IMG/VR virus record: IMGVR_UViG_3300032897_000528
Direction: 5' to 3' (one strand)
DNA: 64,000 bases
DNA from: an uncultured virus (IMG/VR IMGVR_UViG_3300032897_000528)
Taxonomy: Duplodnaviria > Heunggongvirae > Uroviricota > Caudoviricetes
Part shown: in pieces, positions 8,444 to 61,416 of the stretch
Position numbering within the stretch: the first letter of the stretch is position 1
Layout of the letters: each line of letters opens with the position of its first letter
Made by a program: the position numbers and the translations under genes
The notes under the pieces: generated by a model
The model's database searches: none
What the model was told of the DNA's origin: nothing
Seen by the model: the letters and a program-made list of their open reading frames with translations, nothing else

Positions 8444-8467
8444 CAACGCTCGGGATCTTCCGGGCGC

Positions 8468-11566: not shown

Positions 11567-11596
11567 ACTGACCATTATGCGTGAGGGCTCTCGCAT

Positions 11597-11681
11597 ATGC
11601 AAGCATCTTTTTACAACCATGCTTGCATTCTTCTACATCTAGCGTAGTATGCAAGCATCAACAGAGAAAGGATGCTTGCAT
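11597..11681. promoter_or_regulatory. Four ATGCAAGCAT/ATGCTTGCAT boxes (candidate operators)
   Basis: Boxes at 11597, 11619, 11649 and 11672 in alternating orientation between the divergent transposase and P63C genes. Confidence 0.7.
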
Positions 11682-41898: not shown

Positions 41899-42268
41899 GA
41901 GTCACCTCGCGATCGTCCGAGTCGCCCACCTCTCTGTACTCGACGTACTGCCCTTCGGGCAGCTCGACCAGAGAGATCTGAGCGCTCTGACCCGACTCGA
42001 TCATTCGTACTAGATCTTCGACCGAGATACCCAGCAGCTCCGCTGCCGACTCGACCGCAAGGTCAGGAGTGCCTGGCACGTACTCCAGGATGAAGACGCC
42101 CCGCGCTGGCATCTCTGTCCCGAGCGGCAGAATAAGGCCAGGAAACCCAAGGTCAAGCAGGGAGATCTTCGCGCTTCCGGAAGCAAGCCTGACCTCGAAG
42201 CTCCGCCGTATAGACCATGCCTCTCCGGTTACTTGACAAAGCTCCTTTTCAGAGCTATTCTTAGAGGT

Positions 42269-43360
42269 ATGGATAGCAGAGGATTTCCTACATCCCTCCC
42301 CGAATTTCAACGCGTCTTTCCAGACGATGCCGCATGTACTAAGTACCTGGAAGCTTTGAGGTGGCCGGATGGATTCACATGCCCCAAGTGTGGCTGGCAC
42401 GGCGAGCCGTATCGCTTCGCGACGCGTAGCTCTACCGTGTTGCGCTGCAAGGTGTGCGGTGACAAGGGCAACATTTCCCTCACGGCCGGCACGGTCATGC
42501 AAAAGACCCACACGCCCCTTTCCACGTGGTTCTGGGGCGCGTATCTTGTGACCACGCAGACGCCGGGCATGTCGGCCCTTCAATTCCAAAGGCAACTGGG
42601 CTTGTCCCGCTACGAGACGGCCTTCCAGATACTCCACAAGCTGCGAGCGGGGATGGTCCGTCCCGACCGCGATACAATTGGAGGAGAGCACGCCGTTGAG
42701 GTCGATGAGTGCTATGTAGGCGGCAAGACGCGCGGGGAGGGACACGGTGTTCACCACCAAGCCACTGTGGTCGGCGCTGTCGAGGTACGAACACGTAAAG
42801 ATGCCGATGATCGAGCGGCCAAGTGGAAAGAGACACACGAAAAGGGAATCCCCGTCAAGCGGCTTGTCTATGCCGGTCGACTCCGATTGCAAATGGTCTC
42901 CGACATGCCCGGCAAGCTCGAAGTGATGGCTGATCCGGGTTTGTCGGGCCGAAGTGCTGAAAGGTTGCTCGGTTTCGTTCAAGAGAACGTAACACCGGGC
43001 TCGAAGGTCCGAACAGATGGGTGGATTGGCTATCGAGGCCTGACAGAAGCCGGCTACGAACACGACTCGCTTGTACTCGGTGGAGATCCTGAAAAGGCCG
43101 AGGCTCACTTGCCTATGATCCACTTGGTCTTCGGCAATTTGAAGTCTTGGCTTCGAGGCACCCATCATGGAGTTTCGCAGCAGCATCTTCCAGCCTATCT
43201 CAATGAGTTCGTGTTCCGTTTCAACCGTCGTTTCTATCCAATGACCGCGTTCAACTCCGTTTTGGGCCTCGCAGTGAAGACAATTCCACCGACTTACGAG
43301 CAGTTGTATTCCGGAGAGTGGATTCATCCGGGTTCGTCGTCTTCGTCGGAGGCTGCGTAA
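42269..43360 (+). CDS. IS1595-family transposase
   Basis: RWPDGFTCPKC zinc ribbon; VEVDECYVGG; RTDGW; GTHHGVS..HL..YLNEF.FRFNRR. Confidence 0.95.
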   Translation: MDSRGFPTSLPEFQRVFPDDAACTKYLEALRWPDGFTCPKCGWHGEPYRFATRSSTVLRCKVCGDKGNISLTAGTVMQKTHTPLSTWFWGAYLVTTQTPGMSALQFQRQLGLSRYETAFQILHKLRAGMVRPDRDTIGGEHAVEVDECYVGGKTRGEGHGVHHQATVVGAVEVRTRKDADDRAAKWKETHEKGIPVKRLVYAGRLRLQMVSDMPGKLEVMADPGLSGRSAERLLGFVQENVTPGSKVRTDGWIGYRGLTEAGYEHDSLVLGGDPEKAEAHLPMIHLVFGNLKSWLRGTHHGVSQQHLPAYLNEFVFRFNRRFYPMTAFNSVLGLAVKTIPPTYEQLYSGEWIHPGSSSSSEAA

Positions 43361-43438
43361 AAAAGTTGTAGTCCTCCAGAAGGATCGCCCGCTGTTTGGT
43401 GAACATGCGGCGCATGCGATAAAGGCGTTGAAGAAGCG

Positions 43439-44281
43439 TCATGTAATGGTCGCTTCTTTGACCGGCCCACTCCTACTTATGTGCCCTCGACAATAATTTT
43501 TGTTGTCGGCTCCGATTCCAGTGGCGTCTTCGCCGCAGTTGTGAATAGCGCATGGCAAATTGTCTCGCCAAACACGCAAGTACGCGTAACGTATTTCCGG
43601 TTCTTGGTGGAATAACCTTTCAAAACAATTGAGGCACACCATAGGATTATCCCCGAGTTCAGAAAGCAATGTCTTGCCTTCAGCGGAGTCCGCAAATTCA
43701 TGCGGCACCTGATAGAAATAAGTGCGCTTCTGTTGATGTGAGAAGGAACGACAGCCCTTAACCGGGCAGGTTTCCAGCGTTTCCAGGTCTTCTTTCCATC
43801 GATCTTGTCGCGCTTCCAAACTTCGATTAGACGATTTCTTGTCTAATCCTGCCGGCTTGATATGCAGCTCTGTATTCGCAATAGTTGTCTCCAGTTCAAC
43901 AATTCGATTTGCTCGCGCCAAAAGAAGCGCTTGATTACTCTCGCGTTCACGCGATTCGTTGCGAGCGTCTAATTCCAACGCAGCGATTCGATCCCGTAAC
44001 GGCTTCGTTTCCTTCGCCAAAAAATCATCTATATGAGACCCAACAGTGTGTATCGCAATCACAGAGAAAAAAATGAACCCACCACCCAGAATGAACCAAA
44101 CGGGCGTCCAGTCTCGCGCTGCCCACCAAATAGTCGGGTCAACACGCAGCATTAGAACCATTACGCTGACGACCGCCGCACCAAATATTGGCAAAAACGG
44201 CGCCACGCGTTTCATGAAGCGCCCCACAGTCTTGAGGCGTTTCCATTGTTCCTCGATATCGGGTACGAGATCAGATCCCAT
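43439..44281 (-). CDS. Passenger gene: 2-TM, coiled-coil, Cys-rich protein
   Basis: Low GC; two hydrophobic helices; CPVKGC, CLNC, CAIHNC..CRGH. Confidence 0.7.
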   Translation of the reverse strand: MGSDLVPDIEEQWKRLKTVGRFMKRVAPFLPIFGAAVVSVMVLMLRVDPTIWWAARDWTPVWFILGGGFIFFSVIAIHTVGSHIDDFLAKETKPLRDRIAALELDARNESRERESNQALLLARANRIVELETTIANTELHIKPAGLDKKSSNRSLEARQDRWKEDLETLETCPVKGCRSFSHQQKRTYFYQVPHEFADSAEGKTLLSELGDNPMVCLNCFERLFHQEPEIRYAYLRVWRDNLPCAIHNCGEDATGIGADNKNYCRGHISRSGPVKEATIT

Positions 44282-44380
44282 GGTGCGCTACAGTATCTTA
44301 CCCGCCACACCACTGTCAAGTAACCGTATAGGCATGGTATAGACTTCCTGGCGATGTCCACATCCTCGCGCATGTCAGAC

Positions 44381-44743
44381 CTACGAGTCCCAACCGTAGT
44401 CGTCGCCCCGCTCGCGCCGCCTCCCGCGACCCCCGTCTCGACGCTTGGGCTCCCTCGACGGTGCGCCGGCCCGACGCTGGCCGCTCCGCGGTCCGGTAGA
44501 CACGGCGTCTTCGACGTGCAGATCTCGGTCGCCGATCATTGCTCCGGCCAAAGCGGCCTTGGCGGCATCGGCGTCAGCACCTTCCGCGAGCTCGACGAAC
44601 GCGTACCCGCGCGACCTGCCGGTCTCCCGGTCCGTCACTACCTTGACAGAAGCGTGAGCGACCCCGCGCTCGCGCAGCAGGCTGCCGAGCTCAGCGTCGG
44701 TGGCGGACCAGGGCAGGTTGCCCAGAAAGAGCCTTGTTCCCAT
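44381..44743 (-). CDS. RRM RNA-binding protein
   Basis: RLFLGNLPW (RNP2), DRETGRSRGYAFVE (RNP1), Arg/Gly tail. Confidence 0.9.
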   Translation of the reverse strand: MGTRLFLGNLPWSATDAELGSLLRERGVAHASVKVVTDRETGRSRGYAFVELAEGADADAAKAALAGAMIGDRDLHVEDAVSTGPRSGQRRAGAPSREPKRRDGGRGRRRERGDDYGWDS

Positions 44744-45300
44744 TCTTCATTCACTCCTCATTTGGTGGTCTTGCGTGCTCCAGTCGCGCACGAGGTACCG
44801 CAGCACCTCAGCGTCGGATACCTGTCCGCAGAATCCTACTACGTACTTCTTGACGACACGAAACTGCTCGAATTCTTTATTAGTGAGCAGCGTGCACACG
44901 CGCTTCGAGTGACTCTCGTCCTCAGCCGCCGGGCTCGGTCGCGAGGTCGCGCGTCCTTTAAGACTCATCGTCGTCCTCGTCGTCAGGCGGCTCGACCGCG
45001 CCTCCCGACCTGAGACCGAGGCCGAGCCCTCGCCTCGCGGGGAGAGGAGCCGCGCTCGGAGAAGCGACGCGCTTCGGGACGACCCTCACGGAGGCGTCAG
45101 GGTCTGCGACCTCGCGCTTGCCGACGGCCAGCGCCCCGAGGCGCCTCTTGTAGCGCCTCACTATGTCCCTCGAGGAGTCGGGAGTAGACCCCTCGCGCGG
45201 GACATCCAGCCTGAAGGGACCCGCAGCGACTCGTCTGCTCGCCGAGAGGTCAGCACCTGCGTCCTCTCGAGGCTCGTCTCTCTTCCTGTCGCCCATGACT

Positions 45301-45318
45301 CGCGCCTATCCAGTTGAG
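45301..45318 (+). mobile_element. Solo cassette-type terminal repeat
   Basis: CGCGCCTATCCAGTTGAG; contains the TAG stop of 45306..45602, which ends STG* as cassette B does. Confidence 0.55.
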
Positions 45319-45602
45319 TTCCCTGATCTGGTCGGTTGAACGCTCTCCAGTGCCGCGAAAAAAAGAGTCTTCTCCGACGGAGACAGCGACCGGCAGGCCA
45401 TGGCGAGCATCAAGGGCCGCTGCTGTGAGTCGGTTAGTCGCACGTCAGGATGAGCATCCAACCATGAAGAAACGTCGTTGAGGTCGACGTGACATGACCG
45501 TTTAGAGCCGAGACACTCCGGGAGTGGACTGTCAGGAGACTCTCGCAAAAGTAGCCTGCCTATCGACCACCACAATGAAATCAGCGTTTTTCTCATTGAC
45601 AC
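45306..45602 (-). CDS. Lower-GC hypothetical protein ending in a cassette-type end
   Basis: GGAG upstream; C-terminus NSTG*. Confidence 0.55.
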   Translation of the reverse strand: MSMRKTLISLWWSIGRLLLRESPDSPLPECLGSKRSCHVDLNDVSSWLDAHPDVRLTDSQQRPLMLAMACRSLSPSEKTLFFAALESVQPTRSGNSTG

Positions 45603-45609
45603 GTATCTC

Positions 45610-46074
45610 CTACCTGCAGCGACTGACGTGGCTCTTGCGCACGATTATCGGGTGGCTGCGCGGGGTGCGCCTGGCGGCTAGCTCTCCGGTCGGCAGCTTC
45701 TCGCACACGACGAGCTCGTCGAGCAGCCTCGGGTCACTCGACAGCTGAGCCCTGTAGGCCACCTCGTACCGAGGTCGATACTGCTGCGCCACCTTGACCT
45801 TGTCGCCCACTTCGTAGTCAGTCGACTTCGGACGGGGCGGTGGCGCGTAGCCCGCAGACTCGAGACTTCCAACGCTCTCGGAGAGGTTCGAAACCAGCGA
45901 CACCGCGCTCAACACCAGCTCCACGCCCCGGACCACCTCGGAATTACGATCTTTCGCAGATCCCCACGCGGACAGGCGATCTCTGACCAGCGACAAGATC
46001 TTGTGAGCCTTGTCGACATTGCGGTGCAGACGGATCACCGGTGTGCTGCGCCTGTACTTGGTCTTGCGTCCCAC
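45610..46074 (-). CDS. Hypothetical protein
   Basis: 154 aa, operon packing. Confidence 0.6.
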   Translation of the reverse strand: MGRKTKYRRSTPVIRLHRNVDKAHKILSLVRDRLSAWGSAKDRNSEVVRGVELVLSAVSLVSNLSESVGSLESAGYAPPPRPKSTDYEVGDKVKVAQQYRPRYEVAYRAQLSSDPRLLDELVVCEKLPTGELAARRTPRSHPIIVRKSHVSRCR

Positions 46075-46077
46075 GTC

Positions 46078-46353
46078 CTAAGCTCCTTTCCGCCCCGCGA
46101 CCTTGCGGCAGAGCCGAGCTAAATCGGCCGGCACGAGCGTGGTGTCGCCGTCGAGGTCGCGCGACTTGATCCTCTCGTAGAGGGCCCGGCTCATGGTCTC
46201 GAGCGTGACGTCCCTGCCCGTCACGTCGTCGACCACGCTGATCTGCTCGCCAGCAGCAACCAAGTCGGAGAGATCGACCACCTGGACGTAGGTGTGCGTT
46301 GCCTCGTCGTAGTGCTTGTGGTTCGCGTACTTCCTGATCTGTCTCATTGTCAT
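46078..46353 (-). CDS. PhaR-type (PHB_acc_N) DNA-binding domain protein
   Basis: IRKYANHKHYD..TYV..DL..LV..GE.I.VVD..TGRDVT. Confidence 0.75.
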   Translation of the reverse strand: MTMRQIRKYANHKHYDEATHTYVQVVDLSDLVAAGEQISVVDDVTGRDVTLETMSRALYERIKSRDLDGDTTLVPADLARLCRKVAGRKGA

Positions 46354-46363
46354 TCCTTACTCG

Positions 46364-46837
46364 TCAGAGCGGACCCCGGCGCTGCTCGATCTCCTCCTGG
46401 ATGTCAGCAGCCAAGATCCTCATGTCGCGCACCATCTTGCGCGTGTGCTCCGTGTAGCCCCGGAACCCGCTGCCCGCCTTGGTGGCCATAACGGACAGGA
46501 GCTCGGCGAGCGTGGCGAGCTCGTTCAAGATCTCCACGTCGCCCGCCGGCATCGTCACGGTCGCCGTCACGCCGTACCTCCCGGCAGCGTACACCTCAGA
46601 GACCCTGGGAACTGCCAGAGCAGGCGATGCTGCGAGCCTACCTCCAGGCGGCAGCACCGCCACGGACTTCGACCTGCAGGACTCGCAGTCCGAAGCCCCC
46701 TGCGGCTGTACGCTCCCGCACGTGGTGCAGTAGAGGTTCTGACTGCCGCACCTGGGACAGTAGCCATCGCACGGCGTTGGCGGAACATACCGGCAGGCAG
46801 TGCACGCGAGGGTCACGGGGCACCTCCTGGGGCGCAT
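46364..46837 (-). CDS. Double zinc-ribbon protein
   Basis: CTAC..CPRC..CTTC..CESC. Confidence 0.55.
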   Translation of the reverse strand: MRPRRCPVTLACTACRYVPPTPCDGYCPRCGSQNLYCTTCGSVQPQGASDCESCRSKSVAVLPPGGRLAASPALAVPRVSEVYAAGRYGVTATVTMPAGDVEILNELATLAELLSVMATKAGSGFRGYTEHTRKMVRDMRILAADIQEEIEQRRGPL

Positions 46838-47118
46838 CGCTGGCAGTCTCGGACCAGAGGTGGCAGGACGCTGTAGCAACCGTCGCAGTAGATCTGACGC
46901 TTATGGCACGTCGGGCACTCGGCGACTCTCGGGTCACGCACGGTGGCGCACGAGACGCACACGAGGAGACGCTGCCTGCTGCACCTCGGACAGCTCTCGA
47001 CCCCCTGGGGCACCTCCCAACCGCACCGATCGCAGCAGAAGGTGACCGACTTGCACTGTCTGCAGGTGCTTGATCCAGGCTGCTTGAGCGTCCGGCACAT
47101 GATGCACGACACGCTCAC
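46813..47118 (-). CDS. Multi zinc-ribbon protein
   Basis: Eight CxxC motifs in 101 aa. Confidence 0.6.
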   Translation of the reverse strand: MSVSCIMCRTLKQPGSSTCRQCKSVTFCCDRCGWEVPQGVESCPRCSRQRLLVCVSCATVRDPRVAECPTCHKRQIYCDGCYSVLPPLVRDCQRCAPGGAP

Positions 47119-47866
47119 GCCATAACTCCTCGAAGCTTGGCGGCGATCCTAGTGCTCGACAGCCTCCTTGCCCTCTCCTTGAGATCGCCCTCCGAGCAGT
47201 ACTTGTTCCCGAGAGCTCCCGACAGCACAGACGCGAGCACGCCGTCGACCGCGAACATCTGCGGGCTCGCATCTCCAGGGATCATCAAGACGGACACCCC
47301 GTCAGGAAGCCTCGGCAGCTGCTCGTCCTGCTCGCTGGTCAGGGGACAGCGAAACTCGGCGAGCGCCCTCGAGACCCAGACGACAGCGCCAGGATTCCTG
47401 AGGTGCTCCGCATAGAACTTATTCTCGACTTCTCGCAGCTTAGAGAACACGTCATGAGCTGCCACGAGCTGGGCCCTCGTGTGGACGGCGCACGCGCAGC
47501 ACCCATCCCACAGGCGGACCAGAAGATCCTCGCGCGTAGAGAACCCGCACGCGCAGCAGATCTCGTCGCGCATCCAGTCCACCTACTGCTCCTCCATGTA
47601 AGACGAATCGTTCTCCACGGCGTGCCTACTTTATAGTTTGCCTCTTGAGCCTGGCGGAACCGGCGTAGCTCACGGTCGTGGTCAACTGACAACAACCCTC
47701 GTACATCTCGACGCACACGGCCTTCGAGTAGTCATGGTCTCCTCCTTCCGACTGACTGACCTTCACCTCCCCCTCGTCGCAGGAGAGGCTGACTCTCTTG
47801 ACCCCGCCGAACGGTCCCCAAGTGAACGGCCACCTCTTCGTCTTCACCCGGACCTTCAAGCGGAAG

Positions 47867-48766
47867 TTACTGGTTCCCATCAGCACCTCCTGGGGAGGCC
47901 GCCTGGCGACCCGAGAGCATGAGCTTGTCCCAGTCGACGTCGATGGCCTCCCGGACCGCCTCCGAGTCGCGGAACGTCCGCATCGTAGCGTCATGCGACT
48001 CGGGCGAGAGCTTCCCGAAGTGGTATCGCGTGCGGACGAAGAGGAGGGCCGTCTGCAGGGTGTCCTGCTGGCAGTAGCGCCTGATCTTGGCAGCGTGCTC
48101 GGCCGACAGCTCAGGCTGCTCCGCCACCTGCCGGTAGAGAACGTCGACCTTGTCGCCAGACATGTCCGTCTTGCCCGGCAGCCCTATGAGCCTGGCGCAG
48201 TCGCCGAGCCGCATCTGGCGGCTGGCACCGTAGTCGGACAGGTAGTCCATGAGGTCGCAGTGCCCCTCCGTCGAGTACCTGTAGCGCCTCTCCTCCTTAC
48301 CGCCCTGCTTCTTGTAGTACCACCCGCACGATACTCTGTGCTTGAGCGAGCGCATGGAGATGACGGGCAGGTCGAAGCCCCGGCCGTTCCACGTCACCAG
48401 ATGGACGTCATCGCATATGCCCGCGCCGAACTTGTCCAAGATGATCCGCTCCTGCCTGTCGGCCTCCGCGAGGTCCCACGGGCACCACAGGCAGTCGCTC
48501 CAGCACCCGCCGAAGCGGTACTTCGGGTCGTGGTTCAAGTCGAACACGACGTCCACGCAGCTGAGCGCCACCACCCGGCACGCCTGCGGAGGAGGGAAGG
48601 GCTCCACCACGGCGACACCGGCAGCTGACATCATCACGACGCTCCCGAGGCCCGACCCACCGCCAACCTGCTGCAGCGGACCGGGCACGAGCTTGTACGC
48701 GGGCTCCCCCCGAGTCCAGCAGGACTCGTCGGGCACGGTCTCGATGTCGAGCACCCGGAATATCAC
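47867..48766 (-). CDS. 3'-5' exonuclease (PolB-exo2-like)
   Basis: LDIETVPD, TWNGRGFDLP, HCDLMD, GLPGK, YCQQD; GTGA coupling. Confidence 0.85.
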   Translation of the reverse strand: MIFRVLDIETVPDESCWTRGEPAYKLVPGPLQQVGGGSGLGSVVMMSAAGVAVVEPFPPPQACRVVALSCVDVVFDLNHDPKYRFGGCWSDCLWCPWDLAEADRQERIILDKFGAGICDDVHLVTWNGRGFDLPVISMRSLKHRVSCGWYYKKQGGKEERRYRYSTEGHCDLMDYLSDYGASRQMRLGDCARLIGLPGKTDMSGDKVDVLYRQVAEQPELSAEHAAKIRRYCQQDTLQTALLFVRTRYHFGKLSPESHDATMRTFRDSEAVREAIDVDWDKLMLSGRQAASPGGADGNQ

Positions 48767-49332
48767 CTCATGGCCTCTATGCGGTTGAAGACGCAGAGGA
48801 AGCTCTGCTCCGCCCGGGAGGGCTCGAGGCAGCCGATCTCGCCAACTACGCCACCGTAATTGAACCCCCAGCTCTTCTTGACCTCCGCCGGTGCCGTCGG
48901 GAAGAGGTACGCCATCTCGATCCCGCGGACCTCGTCGTCCACCTTCTTGACGAGCTCCCGCATGGCAGCGTCGACCTCCCCCGCGACGCCGAGCTTCTCG
49001 CAGATCGCCCCCATCCAGGCTGCCTCGAGATCCCTGTACCATTCCATCTGCGGCAGCTCCTTGAAGGGAGCGACGGCGTCGTCGAGGTAGACCTCGGCGG
49101 CATCGTGGAAGAGCAGCGCCATGAGACCGACACGATTGTCACAACCCATTCGAATGAGACCGTTCAAGTAGACGAGCACCGAGTGCTCGGCCACCGAGTA
49201 GAGCTGACTCGTGTGACCACCGTAGCGGCAGGTCTGCGAGAGGGCGTGCGCGATGTCCGCGACGTCGACGACAGACGCGTCCGGGCTCATAGGATCGTAG
49301 ACCTTGCCCGAGCTGGTGAGACATTGCCCCAT
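48763..49332 (-). CDS. HD-domain phosphohydrolase (YfbR-like deoxynucleotidase)
   Basis: IAHALS..CRYGGH..YSVAEH..FHDAAEVY..D..P.K. Confidence 0.85.
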   Translation of the reverse strand: MGQCLTSSGKVYDPMSPDASVVDVADIAHALSQTCRYGGHTSQLYSVAEHSVLVYLNGLIRMGCDNRVGLMALLFHDAAEVYLDDAVAPFKELPQMEWYRDLEAAWMGAICEKLGVAGEVDAAMRELVKKVDDEVRGIEMAYLFPTAPAEVKKSWGFNYGGVVGEIGCLEPSRAEQSFLCVFNRIEAMR

Positions 49333-49380
49333 AAAAAATCTCCAGTCAATTAAGGTTTTACCCTACTATAGATGAGGGTG

Positions 49381-50782: not shown

Positions 50783-50844
50783 CAGTTTTTCCTTTCATTT
50801 CTCAATGTCGGCAATACCGACTCGGCCAATATGGTGCTTCCTCG

Positions 50845-51124
50845 CATGCCTATCCAATTGACGTCCTTTCTAGACGTTTCCACTCATTATAATCACGTCC
50901 TTCGATCTTTTGTCGTGATCTTCGTTGTGGGGCCACGTTTCCGTATCCATTTGCAAGGGACATGCTCCATCGTGTTCGCAACCTTCGCAATTGTGCATAC
51001 TTGTGGCCGTCTCTATTGATTCTTCCGGCACTTTTCCTTGATTAACCCAGTAATTGCACCCTGCCCATTTCACCATCTTCAAACTCCTATCGATCTGGTG
51101 GAGTGTGTGAACCGGATAAGCACG
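50845..51124 (-). mobile_element. Non-autonomous IS1595-type mini-cassette A (280 bp)
   Basis: Ends CATGCCTATCCAATTGAC / GTGAACCGGATAAGCACG; 8-bp TSD CTTCCTCG at 50837-50844 and 51125-51132. Confidence 0.88.
50870..51076 (-). CDS. Cassette A cargo: 68-aa Cys-containing protein
   Basis: AGGAG in cassette end; MVKWAGCNYW..CEGC..C. Confidence 0.65.
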   Translation of the reverse strand: MVKWAGCNYWVNQGKVPEESIETATSMHNCEGCEHDGACPLQMDTETWPHNEDHDKRSKDVIIMSGNV

Positions 51125-51719
51125 CTTCCTCGAGCTAACAAGCCAATCATGAACGAGCCTGCCTGAGCTGTCTTGAGATCTCGCGCTTTTGGTGTAGAGG
51201 CGACTTAGCATACCAAGCGTGCCACTCACAGTACCTCACGAGCAGGTCGCCACGCATGACTACCCCTCGAAAGGAGAAATTCTTCACTCGCTTCCACGTG
51301 CAGCCGCACTTCGACGTCGACACCTCGCCAGGAATCGACTCCAGCTCCTCCCGCAACTCTTTGTCCTGCGACTCTTGCGACATCGTAAACCTCATATCAG
51401 TAATCGTATTTACGAGACGCTAGAGCCTCAATCTCCCACCTGCCAACCATCATCTCGTAAGAGCAAGCGTCGAGCGACCAGCCCATGCTCGCGGCCAGCG
51501 CCGGGACCAGCTCAGCGTTTGGAACGTGGTCCACGTAGGGAGACACACCGAGTGAGTACGCCAGGTCGCAGAGCCCCTCGAAGCTCACATCCTCCACCGA
51601 GCCGTCCGGCCTCACGAGCTCGAGGCCGTACCACTTCGGGTAGTTCTCCACGGTCAAGACCGGTCGAGCTTGCGGTGCTCCCGCGTAGACCAGCGGGTGC
51701 CCTCGCCTCGACAAGTACG

Positions 51720-53567: not shown

Positions 53568-54116
53568 TCATCGAGCCCTCGACTTCTGCCAATGTGCCTT
53601 GTCTACCAGGGCGTCCAGCTCGCGGGCCGCGTACTCGCCCAGGTGCTCCTTCACGATCTTCCTAGCCGACCGCACGTCGACAGCTCCCAGCACGACCAAC
53701 GTCTTGACGTCTGACACGTCCTTGTCGCGAGCTGCCGCCATCTTCAGGGCCAGGAGGTAGTCAGGCCTCACCACCTTGAGCGGCAAACCCACGTCGACCG
53801 CGTGATCGACAGCCGCCACGTAGAGCGGCCGGTACTCGTCGGACCGAACCACCAATTTAACAGTGTGTCCCTGAGGAGTTCTCGCCACTACTCCCCCGAA
53901 GATGAGCTCCTCGACGTGCTCGACTCCCGGTAAGTATTCGTCTACCAGAGCCACGTCGACGTCCTTCGTGAGACGGTCCGACCCGTACGCCATCATCGCG
54001 ACACCACCTATGAGAGCAGCGTCGATGTCTTCTCGCGCCGCCATCTCGGCGACCTCAGCGATGGTCGCCTCGATGACGGCGGGGTCTAAGAACTTCACCC
54101 TCTTCTCGTTTCCCAT
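53568..54116 (-). CDS. Nucleotidyltransferase (MNT/DUF6036-like)
   Basis: LIGGVAM..YG..RLTKDVD; LLALK..A.RDKD..D; TTGACA-17-TAAAAA promoter at 54170-54142. Confidence 0.8.
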   Translation of the reverse strand: MGNEKRVKFLDPAVIEATIAEVAEMAAREDIDAALIGGVAMMAYGSDRLTKDVDVALVDEYLPGVEHVEELIFGGVVARTPQGHTVKLVVRSDEYRPLYVAAVDHAVDVGLPLKVVRPDYLLALKMAAARDKDVSDVKTLVVLGAVDVRSARKIVKEHLGEYAARELDALVDKAHWQKSRAR

Positions 54117-54173
54117 AAAGAGATCCTTCTTTTGATTCACATTTTTACCGGCAATTGTACCAAGTGTCAACTG

Positions 54174-55157
54174 CTAAAATAATTTGAGCTGCCTCCCGAG
54201 CCTCTCGCTCATCTGACGCCGCATATCACCATGAGCGGGAAACCCCACGACGCACCTGCGAGCCGCCACGCTGCACAGCCTGCAGGTGGCGCAGGACACT
54301 CCCTCCCGGGACACGGCCGGGCAGACGACCACCCTGCGCCCCCCGGGCGTCACGACCTTGGGCGGGTTGTGCTCGGGCAGGGTCACGACCACCGGTCCCA
54401 GGCAGAGCTCAGCCAGACTGTCAGCTTGCTCGACGCCGTCGGCCGACAGATTGATGACGAGCCCTCCTCGGAGCGTCGCCCGGCGCAGGGCCGCCCGGTT
54501 GGCGAGAGCCGTGCTGCCCGTCCCGAGCACCGGCTTGTGGGTGTACGTGAACCCCCTCGTGCGGCGGGCCGCCTCGCAGAGGTCGCGGAGCAGGTCGGAC
54601 GCCACGTCGTCGCCTTCACCCGGAAGGTCGCCTGCCTCGTTGTGGCGCCATAGCTGGCCTCCGGGCAGCTCCCTCACCCGCTCGAGAAAGTCGTCCCAGG
54701 GCAAGCCGGCCCCCAGCGAGAGCCGCCGCCAGTGCATGCCGGTGAAGTGGTGCTCGGCGTAGCACCCGCGACCGAGCCAGGGGCACGAGGTCGGGCAGGT
54801 CTCCGCGCTCGTCATCGACACCGGTATCGGCCCCGTCTTCGTGTTGCGAGAGCACGAGGTCCACTTGACGAGCAGACGACTCAAAGGAGCTGCCGGTCTC
54901 CTCTCGGCTCCCTGCCTCTGCCCGCTCCGACAAATGTAGCAGCACCTGACCCTCCTCCCCGCGCTCATGAAGTAAGCGACCTCCCGCCACGTGTAGCACT
55001 CCCTGCACCGTACCTCCTCTACGCCAGTGCCGCCGCAGACGGGGCACGGATCTCGGAGTCGTAGCTCCCCCCGGCATGCCGTGCACACCTTCTCGTAGGC
55101 GCGCGACTTGAGCTCGCTGGCGATCACCTGACCCGCCTCCTGGGCAGACCAAACCAC
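54174..55157 (-). CDS. Cys-rich phage protein, possibly Fe-S/radical-SAM-like, with N-terminal Zn finger
   Basis: NTKTGPIPVS..TCP.SCP..CYA, WRHNEAGDL, FTYTH, CPA..C..C.LC. Confidence 0.6.
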   Translation of the reverse strand: MVWSAQEAGQVIASELKSRAYEKVCTACRGELRLRDPCPVCGGTGVEEVRCRECYTWREVAYFMSAGRRVRCCYICRSGQRQGAERRPAAPLSRLLVKWTSCSRNTKTGPIPVSMTSAETCPTSCPWLGRGCYAEHHFTGMHWRRLSLGAGLPWDDFLERVRELPGGQLWRHNEAGDLPGEGDDVASDLLRDLCEAARRTRGFTYTHKPVLGTGSTALANRAALRRATLRGGLVINLSADGVEQADSLAELCLGPVVVTLPEHNPPKVVTPGGRRVVVCPAVSREGVSCATCRLCSVAARRCVVGFPAHGDMRRQMSERLGRQLKLF

Positions 55158-56323
55158 CTGAGCAAGAGTCTCAAGATCCCTCTCCCTGACCTATCGTATC
55201 GCGCTGACGATCGCCTCTCGTAGTCCCTTCTCCTAGATCTCCCACTCGTCACCTCGCGGGGTCGCATGAGCTCACCAGCTTCCTCACTACCTTCGCCGTG
55301 TTGTTGGGACCGTGGGCCGGCACCTTGACTAAGACGTGCTCGCTGTCGAAGTCGAGCACCAACACCAATACCCCGTCGCCGATCACCTCGCGATTCGCGA
55401 CGACGACGGCGACCTCCCTCTCATCAGCGTCGGTAAATGTCGCGACCTTCTCGGTCGAAAATAGACCAGGTTTAACGGACGCCCGCATCGTAGCTACTTG
55501 TTGGCGGTGAATCATGATCTTTTGCCTCTCCGGAAGTTTTCTTCTCCACGACTGGCCTTCGTGATCGGTGAACAGGACACCCGACCATCCTTCAGTCGTC
55601 GCTGTGAACATACCGCGCTGTCGATCTGCACCCGTGACTTCTCCTGTCCGGACGTCTCCATCAGACAGCACACCGAAAATCACCTGGATGGAATCACCGA
55701 CCTCCGGAAATCTCTTGGCAACCCGATCTGCCATCATGCTGCCCTCGCCTCCTCGCATCCTAGATTGGTCCGAACGCATCCTCTTACTCCACCGCACGCT
55801 ACTATCTTCCCAGATCGCAGCTCTGTAACTCCAAGAGAGCACTCGCTAGGTCAGTCTTTCCGGCCACCACCAAGTCCTCGATGGAGACGAGCCCCACCTC
55901 AAGTGCTCGAACGCCTGGTCGCTGACACTGACGTCTCGACACTTGACAGCGAGCGGCCTCGTCGCCAGTGGGCTCGTGATCTTGAGCTCGATCGTTATCG
56001 TCTTCATGGCATCCTCCTGTGTTCAACCAGCCGCTCCCACCGAGCGGCCCGTCAGCGCGCAGCGGTTGCACACCGCCACCCGCACCCGGTTACCGACGGT
56101 GGTCAGCTCGTCGCACGTGTGGCACCGCACCTCCTCCCTGGGCTCGTGGGCGTCCTTCCAGCGCCTGCACGCGAGCACGGCGATCCGGTCTGCCAGCACC
56201 TTGACAGTCTCGGACTTGGTCCCGGGAGCCACGTGGGGAGCCAGCATGAGCGCCACCTCCTTGGCGAACATAACCACCCTCTCGTCGTAGTCGAAGTCTA
56301 TGAGCAGCTGCCCCGAAGCCACG

Positions 56324-56596
56324 TCACTCACCTCCTCTCGGCGGTCTTCCCACCCGAGCCGGTATGACGCCTAGGTCGATCTGGAGCACCTGCACCCTCC
56401 TGTAGAGGTACGTCCGCGGCACCCCGAGAGCCGCCGCGGCGCGAGTGCGCGAGCCCCCGCACGACTGCAGAGCCTGTATGATGAGTATCCGCTCGTGCAG
56501 CGCCATGATCTGGGGCAGAGTGCGAGGCGGCTGCCGCTCTCCGCTTCTCTCGACGGAGGCGTCTCGCCGCCCCATCCTTTGGCTTGGCATTGGCAT
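56324..56596 (-). CDS. Fis-type HTH protein
   Basis: ERILIIQAL..GGSRTRAAAALGVPRTYLYRR. Confidence 0.8.
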   Translation of the reverse strand: MPMPSQRMGRRDASVERSGERQPPRTLPQIMALHERILIIQALQSCGGSRTRAAAALGVPRTYLYRRVQVLQIDLGVIPARVGRPPRGGE

Positions 56597-56802
56597 CTCG
56601 ACCTCCTTTCAGAGTCTCCAAGTACCCTTGATCCACCGCATGCTCATAGAGCTCCAGCTTCATCTCGTGCATGTATCCCAGCACCGACCCCCTGCGCTTG
56701 TACCGATGTTTCTTGGACACCTTCAAGTGCTCGTAGGCGTCCCGAAATGCCATGTTGAGCCGGAACTCGTCATACCCGGGCAGCCCGTGCCGCCTGCCCC
56801 AG

Positions 56803-57447
56803 CTAGACGGCACGCGAGCCCCTCCCGCATGCGGACTCGTCGCTCGTCGAGTGGAGATCTCCGCACTCCTCGCACCTGCAGAGGCTCGCGCGCAGAGCGC
56901 CTATGGCCTCGTTCTTGATCTGGCATACGCGACTCTCCGTCAAGCCCAGCCTCCTGCCGATCGACTTGAGGGTGTTGTCTTCTCGGTAGTACCACGTGAC
57001 GACGTCCCGGAGCCTGCCGGGCAGCCGCCCGACGGCCTCCCACAGGAGGTCGCGGCTCTCGCGGTCGAGCATCTGGGACTCGATGCTGCCTTCACAGGCG
57101 ATCTCCTCCAGGTCGTCGACCCTCATCTTGCGCACTAAGCACCACGCCGGCACGGCCTCCTCGCCGCCGGCGGCGATGGCCTGCCGGCCGTCCCGCTTGA
57201 CGTGGTCCATCGTTCGGAGCTCGTCGTACATGGCCCCGCGGACCCTGTGTACGGCGTACGCGCGCCAGAAGTCCATCACCTGGAGCTTCGCGGGGTCGTA
57301 GTTCCGCCACGCATCGAAGAGACCTGCCATGCCCGCCGCCACGAGGTCGTCGAACATATCCCACTGGCCCGACCGGCGCAGTATCAGCCGAGCTAAGCAC
57401 TCGACGCTGCGTCGCCGGTTCGACCACACCTCTTCGAACGACTTCAT
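56803..57447 (-). CDS. Sigma-70 family factor, FliA/WhiG-like
   Basis: DDLVAAG..GL, YAVHRVRGAMYDELR.MD, TLKSIG..LGLTESRVCQI. Confidence 0.88.
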   Translation of the reverse strand: MKSFEEVWSNRRRSVECLARLILRRSGQWDMFDDLVAAGMAGLFDAWRNYDPAKLQVMDFWRAYAVHRVRGAMYDELRTMDHVKRDGRQAIAAGGEEAVPAWCLVRKMRVDDLEEIACEGSIESQMLDRESRDLLWEAVGRLPGRLRDVVTWYYREDNTLKSIGRRLGLTESRVCQIKNEAIGALRASLCRCEECGDLHSTSDESACGRGSRAV

Positions 57448-57459
57448 GGCCGCTGACCA

Positions 57460-57948
57460 CTATACACCTCCCCCGGCGTCAGCCTGTGACACTCCAGCCA
57501 CTCGGGCACCGAGCCACAGCCCAAGCCTCGCCAGCACGCGCTCTACGACCATCACGGTGACCACGCCGACTCCCCTCATCTTGAGGAGGTCTCGCCGCCC
57601 GAGCCGCACGAGCTGCCCGACCGTCCGAACGGCTGACTGACTGCGGGTCAGCTCGGGATCTGCCAGGAGGACGAACGCATTTTTCTCGACCTCCGTCAAG
57701 TCCGGCAGCCCCGCGAGCTCGAGGTCTAAGAGGCCACCCTCGACGGTGACCGGCGCCGACAACTTCCTCGAGTACTCACCCCACCACCTCTCGCTCGACA
57801 GCACCACCACTGCCGTCATCTTCCCGCCCGACACCTCCACCTTGACGGCGAGCTTCTCGTCAGATGACAGTGAGAGCTCCCGGCGGGCGAACCCAAGCAC
57901 CTGCTCCCACACGCACGACACTGCCTTGTCGAAGTCACGAGCGTCCAC
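57460..57948 (-). CDS. Protein with RNA polymerase alpha-CTD-like C-terminus
   Basis: VRTVGQLV..RRDLLKMRGVG..VERVLARLGL.LG. Confidence 0.65.
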   Translation of the reverse strand: MDARDFDKAVSCVWEQVLGFARRELSLSSDEKLAVKVEVSGGKMTAVVVLSSERWWGEYSRKLSAPVTVEGGLLDLELAGLPDLTEVEKNAFVLLADPELTRSQSAVRTVGQLVRLGRRDLLKMRGVGVVTVMVVERVLARLGLWLGARVAGVSQADAGGGV

Positions 57949-58168
57949 GGTACCTCCTCAGGCGCCTCGAGCACCACAAGACAACTACCCCTACAACACC
58001 CGCCAAGATCAGCACCGGCCACAGCGGAGCCATCAACACCCAGAAGATCTTGCCCCGCTGACTATGGAGATCGACACGATCTCCGTCCCTCAGCTGAGCG
58101 TATACCCACCCGAGGGCCCCGCCGAACCACGCCATGATCAATACCTTAGTCATCTCTCGTGCCTCCTC

Positions 58169-60331
58169 TCACACGGCTGCCCTGAGCATGGCCTTGGTCA
58201 CCGTGTCGAAGTTGCGCTCGATCTCAGCGTCGAAGTCGAAGCCCTCCGACATCCTGTCGCCCGAGCGCAGCTCGGCGACGGTCCACGGCCTTGTCTCCCC
58301 GTCCGGGTAGTGGAAACGCTTGGACAGCATCTCAAAAGTCAGCGCCTTGATGACCAAGAGCTCGAACGGGCTCGTCGTGTACTGGCCGCCTACGAGAGTG
58401 CGATAGAGCTCCCGCATCCGAGTCATGCGCTGGACCCCGATGCGGTCGCCCGCGATGATCTTGTCGAGCTTGTCCCAGGCCGCCTGCCCCTGACCGAGGG
58501 AGAACCCCTTGGCCTTGGTTAGGCGCTTCTCCTTCCAGGTCCCGTCCCGCATGAGCTCGAAGCCCTCGCCCCGGTAGATCTTGGGAGCCACGAACTCGGC
58601 CCAGTCCATCTTCTTCTCGAGCTTGAGGGCGCCGAGCGTCTTGTCGTCAGTCGGCAGGGTAGCCTTGGTCGACACCGAGTCCGTGTCGAAGTAGTAGGGG
58701 GGCTTGTCCTGCCTGTAGCACTCCTTCGCGAAGTCGTAGAGCGTTCGGCGGGCGATGGCGGTGATGACGGAGGCCACGATCACGTGCCGGTGGGCAATCT
58801 TGGCCTCCTTGTCGGCCAACCAGACGCCCGGCTGGAGCATCTGCATGGTCGACCGGTCGATCTCGTCGGGATTGACGAGCATCTCCTGCTTGTGGGTCGA
58901 CTCCGCGGCCTTGCCGTAGAGGGAGTTGAGCAGGTACTTGAGCACCAGCTTCCGAAAGTCCGTCGTGGAGGCGGCCCGGAGCGCGTAGATCTGCCTGGCG
59001 TACGCCGCGAAGTCGTCAAACGGCTCGAAGACATACACCTCGTGCACCTTGTGCAGGGTGGCCCCCTCGCGCAGCGCGAGCCTTATGTCCGTAGAGGTAA
59101 ACCAACTCCGCCACCTCCCGGTCGGGAAGAAGACGCGGTTGTCCTTCCGATAGGGCAGCGGCGGCAGCACCATGTCCGGCACCTCGACGGTCGCGTCGAC
59201 CAAGTAGATGCAGGAGTCCGAGTCGTCGTCCGGCAGCGTGGTCCGGTACTCGACGAGGTTGGCCGGCAGGGGATGGGTCATCGCGTACGGGAACGAGGAG
59301 TTGATGTCGTAGATCTGGAAGTCGCTCGCATTGCGCGCCAGCACCTCGACCCTCGAAGCGAAGTAGCTCTCCTGGCTGATGCTGTTGAGCCTCTCGCTCG
59401 TAAAGATGTCCCGCTTGAGGAAGGCCCGCCGGAACAAGGTCATGGCGGTCGAGGCGATGGTCTGCTGGAGCTGCCCGCCGAGCGCGACTATCTCGGCCTC
59501 GAACTCCGCTATGGCCTTCCACAAGATCTCGCAGTCGAGCTTGTTGTACAAAGTCAAGATGTCGATTGGGGCCTCGGCATAGAAGGTGACCATCTCCGGC
59601 CGCGAGAGCGACTCGAAGTCCTTGACCTGCCGGCCAAACCGCTCGGACATCCAGGCCAGGGCCTTCGGGTCGTCGCCCTTCTTGATGCCGATAGCCTTAC
59701 CGATGGAGGCGAGCTTGTCGCGCAGGAGCCAGTAGGAGTCGCAGAAGTGCCAGGCGTTCTTGCCGCTCACCACGTGGACGATGATGGCCGAGCTCCCGGA
59801 AAACGAGGCCTTGATCTTCCACATCCTGCCCCTGCCGTCCATACCCTGCTCCACTGTGGTCTTCTTGCTGCCGTCGGGTGAGTAGATCGCACTCGACCTG
59901 GTGGCGAGGAGGCTCTCGGCCCTCACCTGCTCCTTGATCTGGGTGAGCAGCTCGTCGAGCACGAACTGCATGTCGGCGAGGCCCCCGGCGTGGGCGAAAA
60001 ACCACCAGCCGCGATACTCCCTGACAAGGAGTGCCTCTACGAGCTCGCGCACCGCCGGATAGCACCTATAGCTCGCGACCATGGTGGGCTCGTCCATATC
60101 CTCCTCGCCCTCCTCGGGCTGCTGGTCGTAGTACCCGCAGATGCGAGCCCGCAGGGCGGAGGTCATCCGCCGCGAGGGTGGGAGCGGCACGCGGAACCTC
60201 TCGCGAGTCCCGACGATCTCGACCTCCGTGTTGACGAGCTCGGGCAGGCTCTCCCCGGGCACCCACTCGAGGTCGAGGACGCCGAACCTGCGCAGCCTGC
60301 GCTCGGTCGTTATGGGGTTGAATACCGGCAC
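58169..60331 (-). CDS. Family B DNA polymerase, protein-primed-type signature
   Basis: Exo LDLEW, FCDSY.LL..L..IG, YNKLD; Pol YDINSSFP, KYLLNSLYGK, ITAIAR, YFDTDS, LGALKLE, APKIY, KAKG. Confidence 0.9.
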   Translation of the reverse strand: MPVFNPITTERRLRRFGVLDLEWVPGESLPELVNTEVEIVGTRERFRVPLPPSRRMTSALRARICGYYDQQPEEGEEDMDEPTMVASYRCYPAVRELVEALLVREYRGWWFFAHAGGLADMQFVLDELLTQIKEQVRAESLLATRSSAIYSPDGSKKTTVEQGMDGRGRMWKIKASFSGSSAIIVHVVSGKNAWHFCDSYWLLRDKLASIGKAIGIKKGDDPKALAWMSERFGRQVKDFESLSRPEMVTFYAEAPIDILTLYNKLDCEILWKAIAEFEAEIVALGGQLQQTIASTAMTLFRRAFLKRDIFTSERLNSISQESYFASRVEVLARNASDFQIYDINSSFPYAMTHPLPANLVEYRTTLPDDDSDSCIYLVDATVEVPDMVLPPLPYRKDNRVFFPTGRWRSWFTSTDIRLALREGATLHKVHEVYVFEPFDDFAAYARQIYALRAASTTDFRKLVLKYLLNSLYGKAAESTHKQEMLVNPDEIDRSTMQMLQPGVWLADKEAKIAHRHVIVASVITAIARRTLYDFAKECYRQDKPPYYFDTDSVSTKATLPTDDKTLGALKLEKKMDWAEFVAPKIYRGEGFELMRDGTWKEKRLTKAKGFSLGQGQAAWDKLDKIIAGDRIGVQRMTRMRELYRTLVGGQYTTSPFELLVIKALTFEMLSKRFHYPDGETRPWTVAELRSGDRMSEGFDFDAEIERNFDTVTKAMLRAAV

Positions 60332-60350
60332 AATTGACCTACTGACAATC

Positions 60351-60407
60351 CACGCCTATCCAGCAGACGAGTGCTCTCGCTCTTTCGTCCATGCCTATCA
60401 GATTAAC
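60351..60407 (+). mobile_element. Two stacked solo cassette-type ends
   Basis: CACGCCTATCCAGCAGAC (60351) and CATGCCTATCAGATTAAC (60390). Confidence 0.55.
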
Positions 60408-60413
60408 AACCCA

Positions 60414-60683
60414 TCAAGGTACAACTACGGACTTGACAGGGCCATATGCTGTCACCAAGTCTTGGCACACACATTGTAAACAGATCGCACCAGTGCCTGC
60501 AGTGACGGACTTTCCTTCCGCGTCAGTCCATGAAAAACAAACTGGATCACTGCGTATATTACCGGTCTGTTTTGGAAACCTCCAAGTATGACCTCGCTTG
60601 CACGTGTGCAATTCCCATTCATACAAGATGTTCAACGAAGCACTTGTAGAAATCTCAAAAACTTGTTTTTGTTCAGTTGTCAT
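60414..60683 (-). CDS. Low-GC small Cys/His protein
   Basis: MTTEQKQV..CKRGH..C..CLQC; AAGGA before ATG; lies upstream of the stacked ends. Confidence 0.5.
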   Translation of the reverse strand: MTTEQKQVFEISTSASLNILYEWELHTCKRGHTWRFPKQTGNIRSDPVCFSWTDAEGKSVTAGTGAICLQCVCQDLVTAYGPVKSVVVP

Positions 60684-60693
60684 CCTTTTCCTC

Positions 60694-61128
60694 TCAATCC
60701 TGCGGCACGACGATGAGAGCTCCCGTGATGTTCCGAGCGCTGGCATTCGTGTTGGTCACACCCACCCGAATCTGATCGCCCCTCTTCACGGGTCGCATCC
60801 TCAGCGGGCAGGGATACTGGGGGAGGTAGTCCTCGACCTTAGCCTCCGGCCTGCACTGACGGAGCACCTCCTCCGTCAGCTCGTCCGTCGACGAGAACAG
60901 AGTGGCCGGCACGGGATCGTCAGCGTCGAGCAGCACGTGGTCCTCCCGGAGGGCGCCGCCCTCGCGAGTCACCGTCGAGATCTGGTAGACCAAGAAGTCT
61001 ACCGCCACGTGCTCGGGGATGAACAGTCGCACGGGAACTACGTCTCGCTCAACCATGAAATGAAAGAGCATCGACGAGTTGCCACTCACGGCATGGACGC
61101 CCAGTCCCTTGACCAAGTACTTTTCCAT
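60694..61128 (-). CDS. All-beta domain protein (family A); current start supplied by cassette B end
   Basis: VPVRLFIP..VAVDFLV..VPATLF..IRVGVTN; ATG at 61128 lies in the cassette terminus. Confidence 0.65.
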   Translation of the reverse strand: MEKYLVKGLGVHAVSGNSSMLFHFMVERDVVPVRLFIPEHVAVDFLVYQISTVTREGGALREDHVLLDADDPVPATLFSSTDELTEEVLRQCRPEAKVEDYLPQYPCPLRMRPVKRGDQIRVGVTNTNASARNITGALIVVPQD

Positions 61129-61372
61129 GCCTATCCGGTTGACGCTCCACTGAAGGCTCCGCCGTTCTTCAAAAGCCACTTGTGCAGACGTTTTTGTACG
61201 TGATCTCGTTCTGAATCACTCATGAATCCGTGGACATGCAAAGCACCAGCGCAAGCCAACATACGTTTGAGGCATGTCTCGGACTTCCAGGTTGGAAACT
61301 TGGCATAAGGCCGTAATTTCGACATTTCAAACTCCTATCGAGTTAGTGGTGTGCGTGAACCGGATAAGCATG
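61126..61372 (-). mobile_element. Non-autonomous IS1595-type mini-cassette B (247 bp)
   Basis: Ends CATGCCTATCCGGTTGAC / GTGAACCGGATAAGCATG (16/18 inverted repeat); 8-bp TSD TACTTTTC at 61118-61125 and 61373-61380. Confidence 0.92.
61131..61325 (-). CDS. Cassette B cargo: 64-aa protein
   Basis: AGGAG in one end and TAG stop inside the other end. Confidence 0.7.
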   Translation of the reverse strand: MSKLRPYAKFPTWKSETCLKRMLACAGALHVHGFMSDSERDHVQKRLHKWLLKNGGAFSGASTG

Positions 61373-61416
61373 TACTTTTCCGATCCCATTTAAATTGAAA
61401 GTCGCTGAGCTGTCAG

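Follow-up and report, generated by a model that had tools for sequence, protein, structure and literature searches.

Small single-gene cassettes with IS1595-type ends and a shared translation leader in the genome of an uncultured phage

An IS1595-family element and two small cassettes in a phage genome

The 64,000-nucleotide (nt) stretch of DNA analysed here, called the window throughout, is the IMG/VR virus record IMGVR_UViG_3300032897_000528 (Caudoviricetes) and belongs to a 151-kb metagenome contig (L293). It derives from a large, high-GC, uncultured phage of a wetland habitat. The minus strand carries almost all of its phage-typical genes, among which Pfam recognises a viral-type PolB, a sigma factor, a thymidylate kinase, a D12 methyltransferase, helicases and an amidase. 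This work concerns an intact insertion sequence (IS) of the IS1595 family in this window and two small elements, cassettes A and B, which have IS-type ends and a single cargo gene each (Table 1). The positions of the three elements and of their 8-bp target-site duplications, proposed in an original prediction made from the sequence alone, were confirmed on reading the window.

Table 1. Positions of the insertion sequence, the cassettes and related features in the window
Feature	Position	Strand	Remark
Autonomous IS1595-family IS, 2121 bp, one passenger gene	42216-44336	+	
Target-site duplication GTATAGAC, 8 bp, left copy	42208-42215	.	identical copy at 44337-44344
Target-site duplication GTATAGAC, right copy	44337-44344	.	
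IS left terminal inverted repeat	42216-42238	+	21/23 identical to reverse complement of 44314-44336
IS right terminal inverted repeat	44314-44336	-	
Transposase, 363 aa, zinc ribbon and DDE_Tnp_IS1595	42269-43360	+	Pfam
IS passenger open reading frame (ORF), 280 aa	43439-44281	-	opposite strand to transposase
Cassette A, 280 bp, transposase-less mobile insertion cassette	50845-51124	-	leader model E 1.9e-12
Duplication CTTCCTCG, 3'-side copy of cassette A	50837-50844	.	identical copy at 51125-51132
Duplication CTTCCTCG, 5'-side copy of cassette A	51125-51132	.	
Cassette A 47-bp 5' end: inverted repeat and leader	51078-51124	-	AGGAG at 51084-51088
Cargo A, 68 aa, Cys/His-rich	50870-51076	-	
Cassette B, 247 bp, transposase-less mobile insertion cassette	61126-61372	-	leader model E 5.9e-14
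Duplication TACTTTTC, 3'-side copy of cassette B	61118-61125	.	identical copy at 61373-61380
Duplication TACTTTTC, 5'-side copy of cassette B	61373-61380	.	
Cassette B 47-bp 5' end: inverted repeat and leader	61326-61372	-	AGGAG at 61332-61336
Cargo B, 64 aa	61131-61325	-	stop TAG within 3' inverted repeat (TCA ACC GGA TAG GCATG)
Displaced start of B target gene, 20-codon ORF	61327-61389	-	MGSEKY and 14 cassette-encoded residues
Cassette B target gene	60694-61128	-	now starts at ATG from the cassette's last three bases, in frame (M-EKYLVKG...)
Cassette C, 5'-truncated	60390-60700	-	3' inverted repeat 60390-60407 (3 mismatches)
Possible solo 3'-end relic, 4 mismatches	60351-60368	-	19 nt upstream of PolB start
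Possible solo 3'-end relic, 4 mismatches	45301-45318	-	4 nt upstream of ORF 44958-45296
Solo end relic, 2 mismatches	6590-6607	+	just upstream (10 nt) of tRNA-Met 6617-6692

The IS combines a DDE transposase, a zinc ribbon, inverted repeats (CATGCCTCTCCGGTTACTTGACA and CATGCCTATACGGTTACTTGACA) and an 8-bp duplication; target duplications of the IS1595 family are about 8 bp long. Its transposase matches Pfam DDE_Tnp_IS1595 at 6e-30 over profile positions 5-153 of 153, and the N-terminal zinc ribbon matches Zn_ribbon_IS1595 at 2.1e-13, so that the predicted assignment to IS1595 stands. Full-length relatives of this transposase at 55-65% identity occur in viral contigs. Among GenBank phages, the IS DNA found no match, and distant transposase relatives (24-26% identity) are present in just 2 of 50,697 records. 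For the 280-aa passenger ORF, no match was obtained in Pfam, PHROGs, PADLOC or ESM Atlas. Another contig, L298, has at its end (17192-17313) a repeat of the same subtype as that of the window IS (CATGCTCATCCGGTTAGTTGACAAA), and the PolB of L298 is 75% identical to that of the window; this unusual IS subtype is therefore present in related phages too. Directly adjoining the IS insertion site is a 120-aa ORF (44381-44743) with an RRM_1 domain (2.8e-15), which is unusual for a phage.

The IS and both cassettes have the terminal core CATGCYTATCCGGTT in common. The 18-mer end is matched six times in the window at up to 3 mismatches, a number that none of 100 shuffled sequences reached (0.04 expected). 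The predicted likeness between cassette and IS ends held for the first 15 nt, of which 14 are identical, but not beyond, where the IS has 3 extra bases before TGAC. This lineage end presumably resembles the motif of the ISSod11 subgroup; ISNha5, ISNwi1+ and ISPna2+ are subgroups with passenger genes.

Read along the minus strand, each cassette consists of a terminal repeat, a leader, an ATG with the cargo ORF, and the other repeat. The leader has the form CAC(A/G)CAC(T/A)CCAC...TCGATAGGAGTTTGAA, followed by the ATG. As predicted, A and B share an AGGAG-containing 47-bp end (41 of 47 positions identical, ungapped), and the alignment collapses at the start codon. The two cargo proteins are likewise unrelated, BLASTP giving no alignment between them at E<=100. 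Inside A and B there is no transposase gene; the only plausible ORFs, of 68 and 64 aa, have no Pfam hit. A simple scan of both cassettes detected neither a sigma-70-like promoter nor an intrinsic terminator, and the cargo genes lie on the same strand as their neighbours, in line with the view that the cassettes are promoterless and co-oriented. No Rfam family was found at the gathering score between positions 42000 and 62000.

Cassette A is intergenic, 22 nt past the stop of ORF 51147-51395, and its 3' inverted repeat has 2 mismatches (GG>AA). Cassette B, whose 3' and 5' repeats have 0 and 2 mismatches respectively, interrupts a phage gene behind its third codon. The start of this gene, now displaced, reads into the cassette and ends at a TGA 1 nt before the ATG of cargo B, and the remainder of the gene begins at an ATG that the cassette supplies (Table 1).

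Homologues of both cargo proteins were found in other metagenomes. Those of cargo B are 86% and 78% identical; those of cargo A are 69% and 68% identical, with 5 Cys and 2 His invariant, and in comparison with them the cargo A of the window has a frameshift in the last ~14 codons. Cassette A looks older or decaying because of this frameshift and of its more degenerate repeats. One homologue of each cargo ends in ...ASTG or ...ASAG, a C-terminus encoded by the terminal repeat, which suggests that these copies, too, probably sit in cassettes. The cargo A domain also occurs within a longer ordinary gene of AT-rich viral contigs, where no such repeats are present, and this fits a capture of cargo A from the general phage gene pool. 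No relatives of cargo B were found in viral contigs. The structure model of cargo B is a two-helix hairpin with a predicted local distance difference test score (pLDDT) of 67 and is not informative; that of cargo A (pLDDT 46) is unusable.

A and B are of the size of miniature elements, and the same ends bound non-coding bacterial elements of 100-380 bp as well as 241-bp elements without an ORF of >=50 aa in one viral contig (G004, see below). It might thus be asked whether A and B are ordinary non-coding miniatures with chance open frames. We consider this very improbable: (i) the ORFs fill the cassettes and start at a fixed distance behind AGGAG, (ii) homologues of 68-86% identity exist for the cargo proteins, and Cys and His residues are invariant among them, (iii) the domain of cargo A is an ordinary gene in AT-rich phages, and (iv) sister cassettes carry methyltransferases and a gene with a ratio of non-synonymous to synonymous substitution rates (dN/dS) of 0.03-0.07.

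One leader and many cargo genes in viral contigs

IMG/VR scans with the end motif matched at least 130 and at least 140 stretches, 273 loci overall; the counts of end pairs apply to the matches listed. With a looser end pattern, about 170 chance hits were estimated, about as many as were found. As loose single matches are thus near chance level, counts were restricted to paired inverted ends with duplications. In a first set of paired ends, 26 of 35 had identical 8-bp flanks. Across the 273 loci, these ends together with perfect 8-bp duplications bound at least 41 distinct elements, 207-1035 bp in length, and 33 pairs are without perfect duplications.

An ORF of at least 50 aa starts 20-160 nt from one end in 35 of the 41 elements (37 of 43 with A and B), mostly 24-59 nt from the end and behind a GGAG-like site. 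The cargo stop lies in the far repeat, giving proteins that end in ...STG, in about a third of the elements. The six elements without such an ORF, mostly of ~241 bp, behave as plain miniatures.

By PHROGs and Pfam, six cargo genes encode DNA methyltransferases (L147, L156, L160, L162, L077 and L237), and a nucleoside deoxyribosyltransferase is carried by three cassettes at three sites (L255, L059 and L166). With a dN/dS of 0.03-0.07, the deoxyribosyltransferase gene is under purifying selection. One further cargo belongs to PHROG 12600, and the remaining ones have no recognised family. Since the recognisable cargo consists mostly of DNA-modification enzymes, phages probably receive accessory and counter-restriction genes from one another by way of this family.

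The leader proved to be a family trait as well. A profile of the 5' end built from five IMG/VR cassettes alone recovers both B and A (E-values in Table 1), and a strict leader pattern matches 8 loci of IMG/VR. Their cargo is of four types, namely proteins of 105 aa and 65 aa, the deoxyribosyltransferase and an N6-methyltransferase of 163 aa. A relative of the phage (L304; PolB 72% identical) has a 275-bp cassette with the leader ...TCGATAGGAG... and the duplication GAAGTAAC, the 72-aa cargo of which ends within the repeat. In total, the A/B-type leader is joined to at least seven unrelated cargo genes, A and B included. These data bear out the proposal of a family of translation-ready single-gene cassettes, and the further cargo variants and duplications that were sought in related DNA are provided by the 41 duplication-flanked elements with their varied cargo.

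Flanking genes, from heuristic ORF calls, are co-oriented with the cargo in 46 cases and not in 12. In 11 of 20 cases (one locus entering the count twice), no open frame is longer than that of the terminal ATG; a third of the cases would be expected. In L166 (1501-2118), the deoxyribosyltransferase cassette splits an ORF for an HNH/AP2-type endonuclease at GTCTAGAC; not every insertion, therefore, spares the target gene.

In a collection of species genomes, the same end recurs in bacteria and archaea: at least 128 stretches of genomes and metagenome-assembled genomes from many phyla contain it. These cellular elements are transposase-only ISs of 1.0-1.2 kb and mostly non-coding miniatures of 100-380 bp, with 8-bp duplications; one clear cargo cassette, a 915-bp element with a HAD-like ORF, is among the cellular matches listed. 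Cargo-bearing forms thus look enriched in viral as compared with cellular contigs, among the matches listed. The family seems to be confined to uncultured environmental phages.

Transposases with the same ends, and signs of mobility

In about 30 of 80 fully fetched loci, the same repeat is adjoined by a transposase 52-71% identical to that of the window. In 27 of these, the transposase starts 88-1202 nt away from the repeat, and in L271 and L273 the space between is filled by a co-oriented passenger gene. The common autonomous form therefore consists of repeat, passenger, transposase and repeat, and loss of the transposase from it would leave a cassette. In one autonomous copy, L173, the leader resembles those of A and B. 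The passenger of L271 (1740-2504) is a 254-aa ORF, starting VVGLSGGDDS..., that by eye has a PP-loop/PAPS-reductase-type look.

A pair of motifs was also seen in the autonomous copies (L133-L208, L286): most have TTGAC(A/T/G) within the left repeat and, exactly 17 nt later, a conserved TGCTAG(T/A)(A/T)T. To the eye, this pair resembles either a sigma-70 promoter that points inward and has an extended -10, or a subterminal site for transposase binding. In A/B-type cassettes, this position is taken by the ribosome-binding site GATAGGAG.

Five cassette-bearing contigs were searched whole, and one of them, the 117-kb G004 (estimated complete), encodes a transposase. This contig has 15 forward and 15 reverse ends, compared with 1-5 per orientation in the other four and 0 in a reversed-pattern control. 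Its loci (L286-L292) comprise a 2250-bp autonomous copy and at least five elements of ~240 bp with perfect duplications. Several end pairs of G004 have no matching duplications, which suggests recombination between copies. Within the family, a 241-bp element occupies 4 sites with 4 different duplications at 95-99% identity, and a 287-bp element occupies 2 sites at 99% identity.

As four of the five contigs are without a transposase, the enzyme may come from the host or from a co-infecting phage. In its strong form, this possibility holds that transposases of the host chromosome move the cassettes during infection and that the IS of the window is a bystander relative. It would agree with the presence of the same 18-nt end in the at least 128 bacterial and archaeal stretches, where it bounds transposase-only elements and miniatures, and with the departure of the window IS from the cassette ends after nt 15. 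However, the ~30 of 80 viral loci carry a transposase themselves, and the sole transposase-encoding contig of the five shows the largest burst of ends. We consider a host enzyme somewhat unlikely; it would alter the enzyme source alone and is compatible with the explanation that we prefer, given below.

A profile of 75 target sites is weakly palindromic, GWWNNWWC, with T at -2 and A at +10; G is found at position 1 in 38 sites, A or T at position 7 in 67 and C at position 8 in 40. Such a shared profile is as expected if one DDE enzyme family acts on ISs, miniatures and cassettes. The cassettes had also been likened to an integron, and as an analogy this holds: they are single promoterless genes with interchangeable content. 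Site-specific, integron-like capture as the way in which they are placed is nevertheless extremely improbable, being contradicted by inverted repeats with 8-bp duplications at many different targets; there is no fixed capture site. The ends are, moreover, those of DDE transposase elements, and no integrase family (tyrosine integrase) is represented among the 70 window ORFs scanned. No attC-like site was noted in A or B, where no dedicated attC model search was made.

Population alleles and degenerate ends

Window DNA is contained in three wetland-metagenome runs, and X1 and X3 are among the runs that gave population data. The search for empty alleles with a single duplication copy succeeded for the IS and found none for A or B. 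One X3 contig joins 42207 to 44337, with 8 ambiguous letters, and thus represents an IS-free allele with a single copy of the duplication; a second X3 contig, of depth 17.2, carries the IS. In X1, a 16.5-kb contig matches the two ends of B alone and has different content between them. No joint in the run contigs matched an allele without A or B; several joints between the A and B ends are cross-matches that trace to the leader they have in common or to further members of the family.

Searches further afield gave no orthologous empty site. A PolB search of viral contigs yielded no relative, the D12 methyltransferase near the cassettes has viral-contig relatives at 30-37% identity alone, and in the loci that were fetched, in-silico empty-site queries based on the flanks of the 41 elements detected no empty allele.

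The window contains degenerate copies of the end as well. Cassette C retains a 3' repeat, directly behind which lies an 89-aa ORF (60414-60683), and no 5' repeat is left. The leader remnant ATTGAGAGGAAAA, which is the 13 nt upstream of this ORF, is identical to the leader of L109. C is an immobilised, truncated cassette. An X3 contig joins 60335 to 60697, skipping this stretch. The possible relics at 60351 and 45301 are individually weak, about 0.5 chance hits being expected for 4-mismatch ends such as that at 45301; in the relative L306, a perfect end lies 14 nt upstream of the PolB start.

Might A and B, then, be dead relics, that is, immobile remnants of internal deletions that are inherited vertically and whose cargo is decaying? 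The mismatched repeats and frameshifted C-terminus of A point that way, as do the degenerate ends at 60390, 60351, 45301 and 6590 and the absence of an observed empty allele of A or B. In contrast, B keeps good repeats, its duplication is perfect and its cargo, 86% identical to a homologue, is intact; the IS of the same genome is polymorphic in the population, and family members are found at multiple sites at 95-99% identity. On balance we regard the relic explanation as improbable.

A model for the cassettes

We propose, with a probability of about 0.8, that A and B belong, as mobile insertion cassettes, to an IS1595 lineage with passenger genes, and that they are moved in trans, owe their expression to read-through and are translated with the ribosome-binding site that each carries. 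Each is built of a ~47-nt 5' end (a 15-18-nt repeat and a Shine-Dalgarno leader), a single cargo ORF and a 3' repeat of ~18-25 nt. A DDE transposase of the lineage, made elsewhere, would bind the CATGCYTATCCGGTT termini and insert the cassette by an 8-bp staggered cut at a weakly palindromic GWWNNWWC target. This enzyme could be supplied by the IS at 42216-44336, by a co-infecting phage or by the host; we infer that the IS of the window may itself mobilise A and B. The cargo would probably be transcribed by read-through from the phage and translated from the ribosome-binding site of the cassette, possibly with translational coupling around it, and the terminal CATG may give an interrupted downstream gene a new start codon, as at B.

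A more far-reaching version is possible, and we offer it tentatively, at less than even confidence. The family would be a phage-adapted transposon that inserts without breaking the operon: the leader would end incoming translation and restart it on the cargo, the 3' repeat would supply the cargo stop, and the terminal CATG would supply an in-frame start downstream. Moron-like genes with accessory and counter-defence roles would thereby be exchanged by a transposase, cargo forms being virus-specific and plain ISs and miniatures host-specific.

Several observations weigh against the proposal that A and B are mobile cassettes of this lineage. With regard to the enzyme, the likeness of the window IS to the cassette ends is limited to 15 nt and its leader differs; its passenger is opposite to those of the IMG/VR autonomous copies both in strand and in the end at which it lies; and four of five cassette-bearing contigs have no transposase. 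With regard to mobility, the IS-free allele is a single contig (depth 5.5, 90% likeness) whose shorter side has 38 letters, an empty allele of A or B was not seen, and at these two sites the matched run contigs are all occupied. Among 24 metagenome PolB relatives (47-85% identical), the small genes flanking A and B were not found; in L317, however, the ORF upstream of A has a homologue, and L305 contains a distant one of the UDG-like ORF. Finally, cassette A has a decayed look, with 2-3 mismatches per repeat in addition to the frameshifted cargo C-terminus, the 46-to-12 orientation count comes from a crude ORF heuristic and several cargo calls are doubtful, and the in-frame terminal-ATG comparison across the family is no more than suggestive.

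Comparison with known mobile elements

Transporter ISs, which carry passenger genes, were reportedly described in the IS1595 family by Siguier, Gagnevin and Chandler in 2009 (cited in PMC3129680). The IS of the window and ~27 IMG/VR relatives resemble them in having a passenger beside an IS1595 transposase and 8-bp duplications, whereas A and B lack a transposase. In this last respect A and B resemble mobile insertion cassettes (MICs), which, with transporter ISs and miniature transposable elements that have inverted repeats (MITEs), appear as established categories in passages of PMC3129680. The example given there, MIC231, is a derivative of the Bacillus cereus element IS231 (De Palmenaer et al. 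2004). Both A/B and MICs have IS-type repeats with target duplications, no transposase, an unrelated passenger and a presumed cognate enzyme elsewhere; that A and B have IS-type ends, a duplication and a coding passenger in place of a transposase places them in this category. They differ from MIC231 in belonging to IS1595 instead of IS4/IS231 and in residing in phage genomes. Compared with MICs, the A/B family is far smaller (207-1035 bp), has one gene and a conserved ribosome-binding-site leader, often has the cargo stop inside the repeat, and carries very diverse cargo behind one leader.

MITEs, like A and B, are small and non-autonomous, have inverted repeats and duplications, depend on an external transposase and are present in IMG/VR. 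A 2024 survey of prokaryotes and IMG/VR defines them, in its main text, as non-coding (PMC11602168), whereas A and B are coding: conserved ORFs with a ribosome-binding site fill the elements. Neither IS1595 nor cargo or passenger genes are mentioned in that main text (PMC11602168).

Two further comparisons concern function. Morons are defined by their own promoter and terminator and have no transposition mechanism attached to them, and integron cassettes rely on attC sites, a tyrosine integrase and one attachment site. The A/B family resembles morons in that single accessory genes are added between phage genes, and integron cassettes in that promoterless single-gene units have interchangeable content; it differs from both in its DDE-transposon repeats with duplications at many sites.

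No description of IS1595-type cargo cassettes in phages was found in the literature, ISfinder and subscription journals lying outside the search. The lack of an earlier description may be explained by the apparent confinement of the family to uncultured environmental phages. Apparently new here are the residence in phages, the extreme degree of compaction, a conserved leader ready for translation, the wide range of cargo and an apparent split between virus and host of the coding and non-coding forms.

Phages are usually viewed as poor carriers of transposable elements, and to our knowledge the gain of single accessory genes between conserved phage genes is largely unexplained. With a family of 0.2-1-kb cassettes, part of the mosaicism of phages and the spread of counter-restriction would have a concrete mechanism that can be tested. 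If the operon-sparing design proved true, it would be a general route by which orphan methyltransferases and base-modification enzymes pass between phages. The family can be counted across metagenomes because its ends are short and conserved, and the small cargos without a recognised family form a candidate list of phage accessory or anti-defence proteins. Phages are indeed described as less tolerant of transposable elements in a passage of PMC3429520.

Other features of the window

A second, unrelated insert of mobile or defence-like character is a low-GC island (GC 0.51-0.57) at 9589-12669. It contains a RelA/SpoT-domain gene (9589-10749) that belongs to the PADLOC candidate defence family PDC-S33 (1e-116), an IS1-like transposase ORF (10742-11620, minus strand) and a P63C-domain gene (11581-12669). 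Two tRNA-Met (CAT) genes are located at 6617-6692 and 8369-8444, and a 366-aa ORF at 62220-63320 matches the histone H1-like nucleoprotein HC2 (2e-22).

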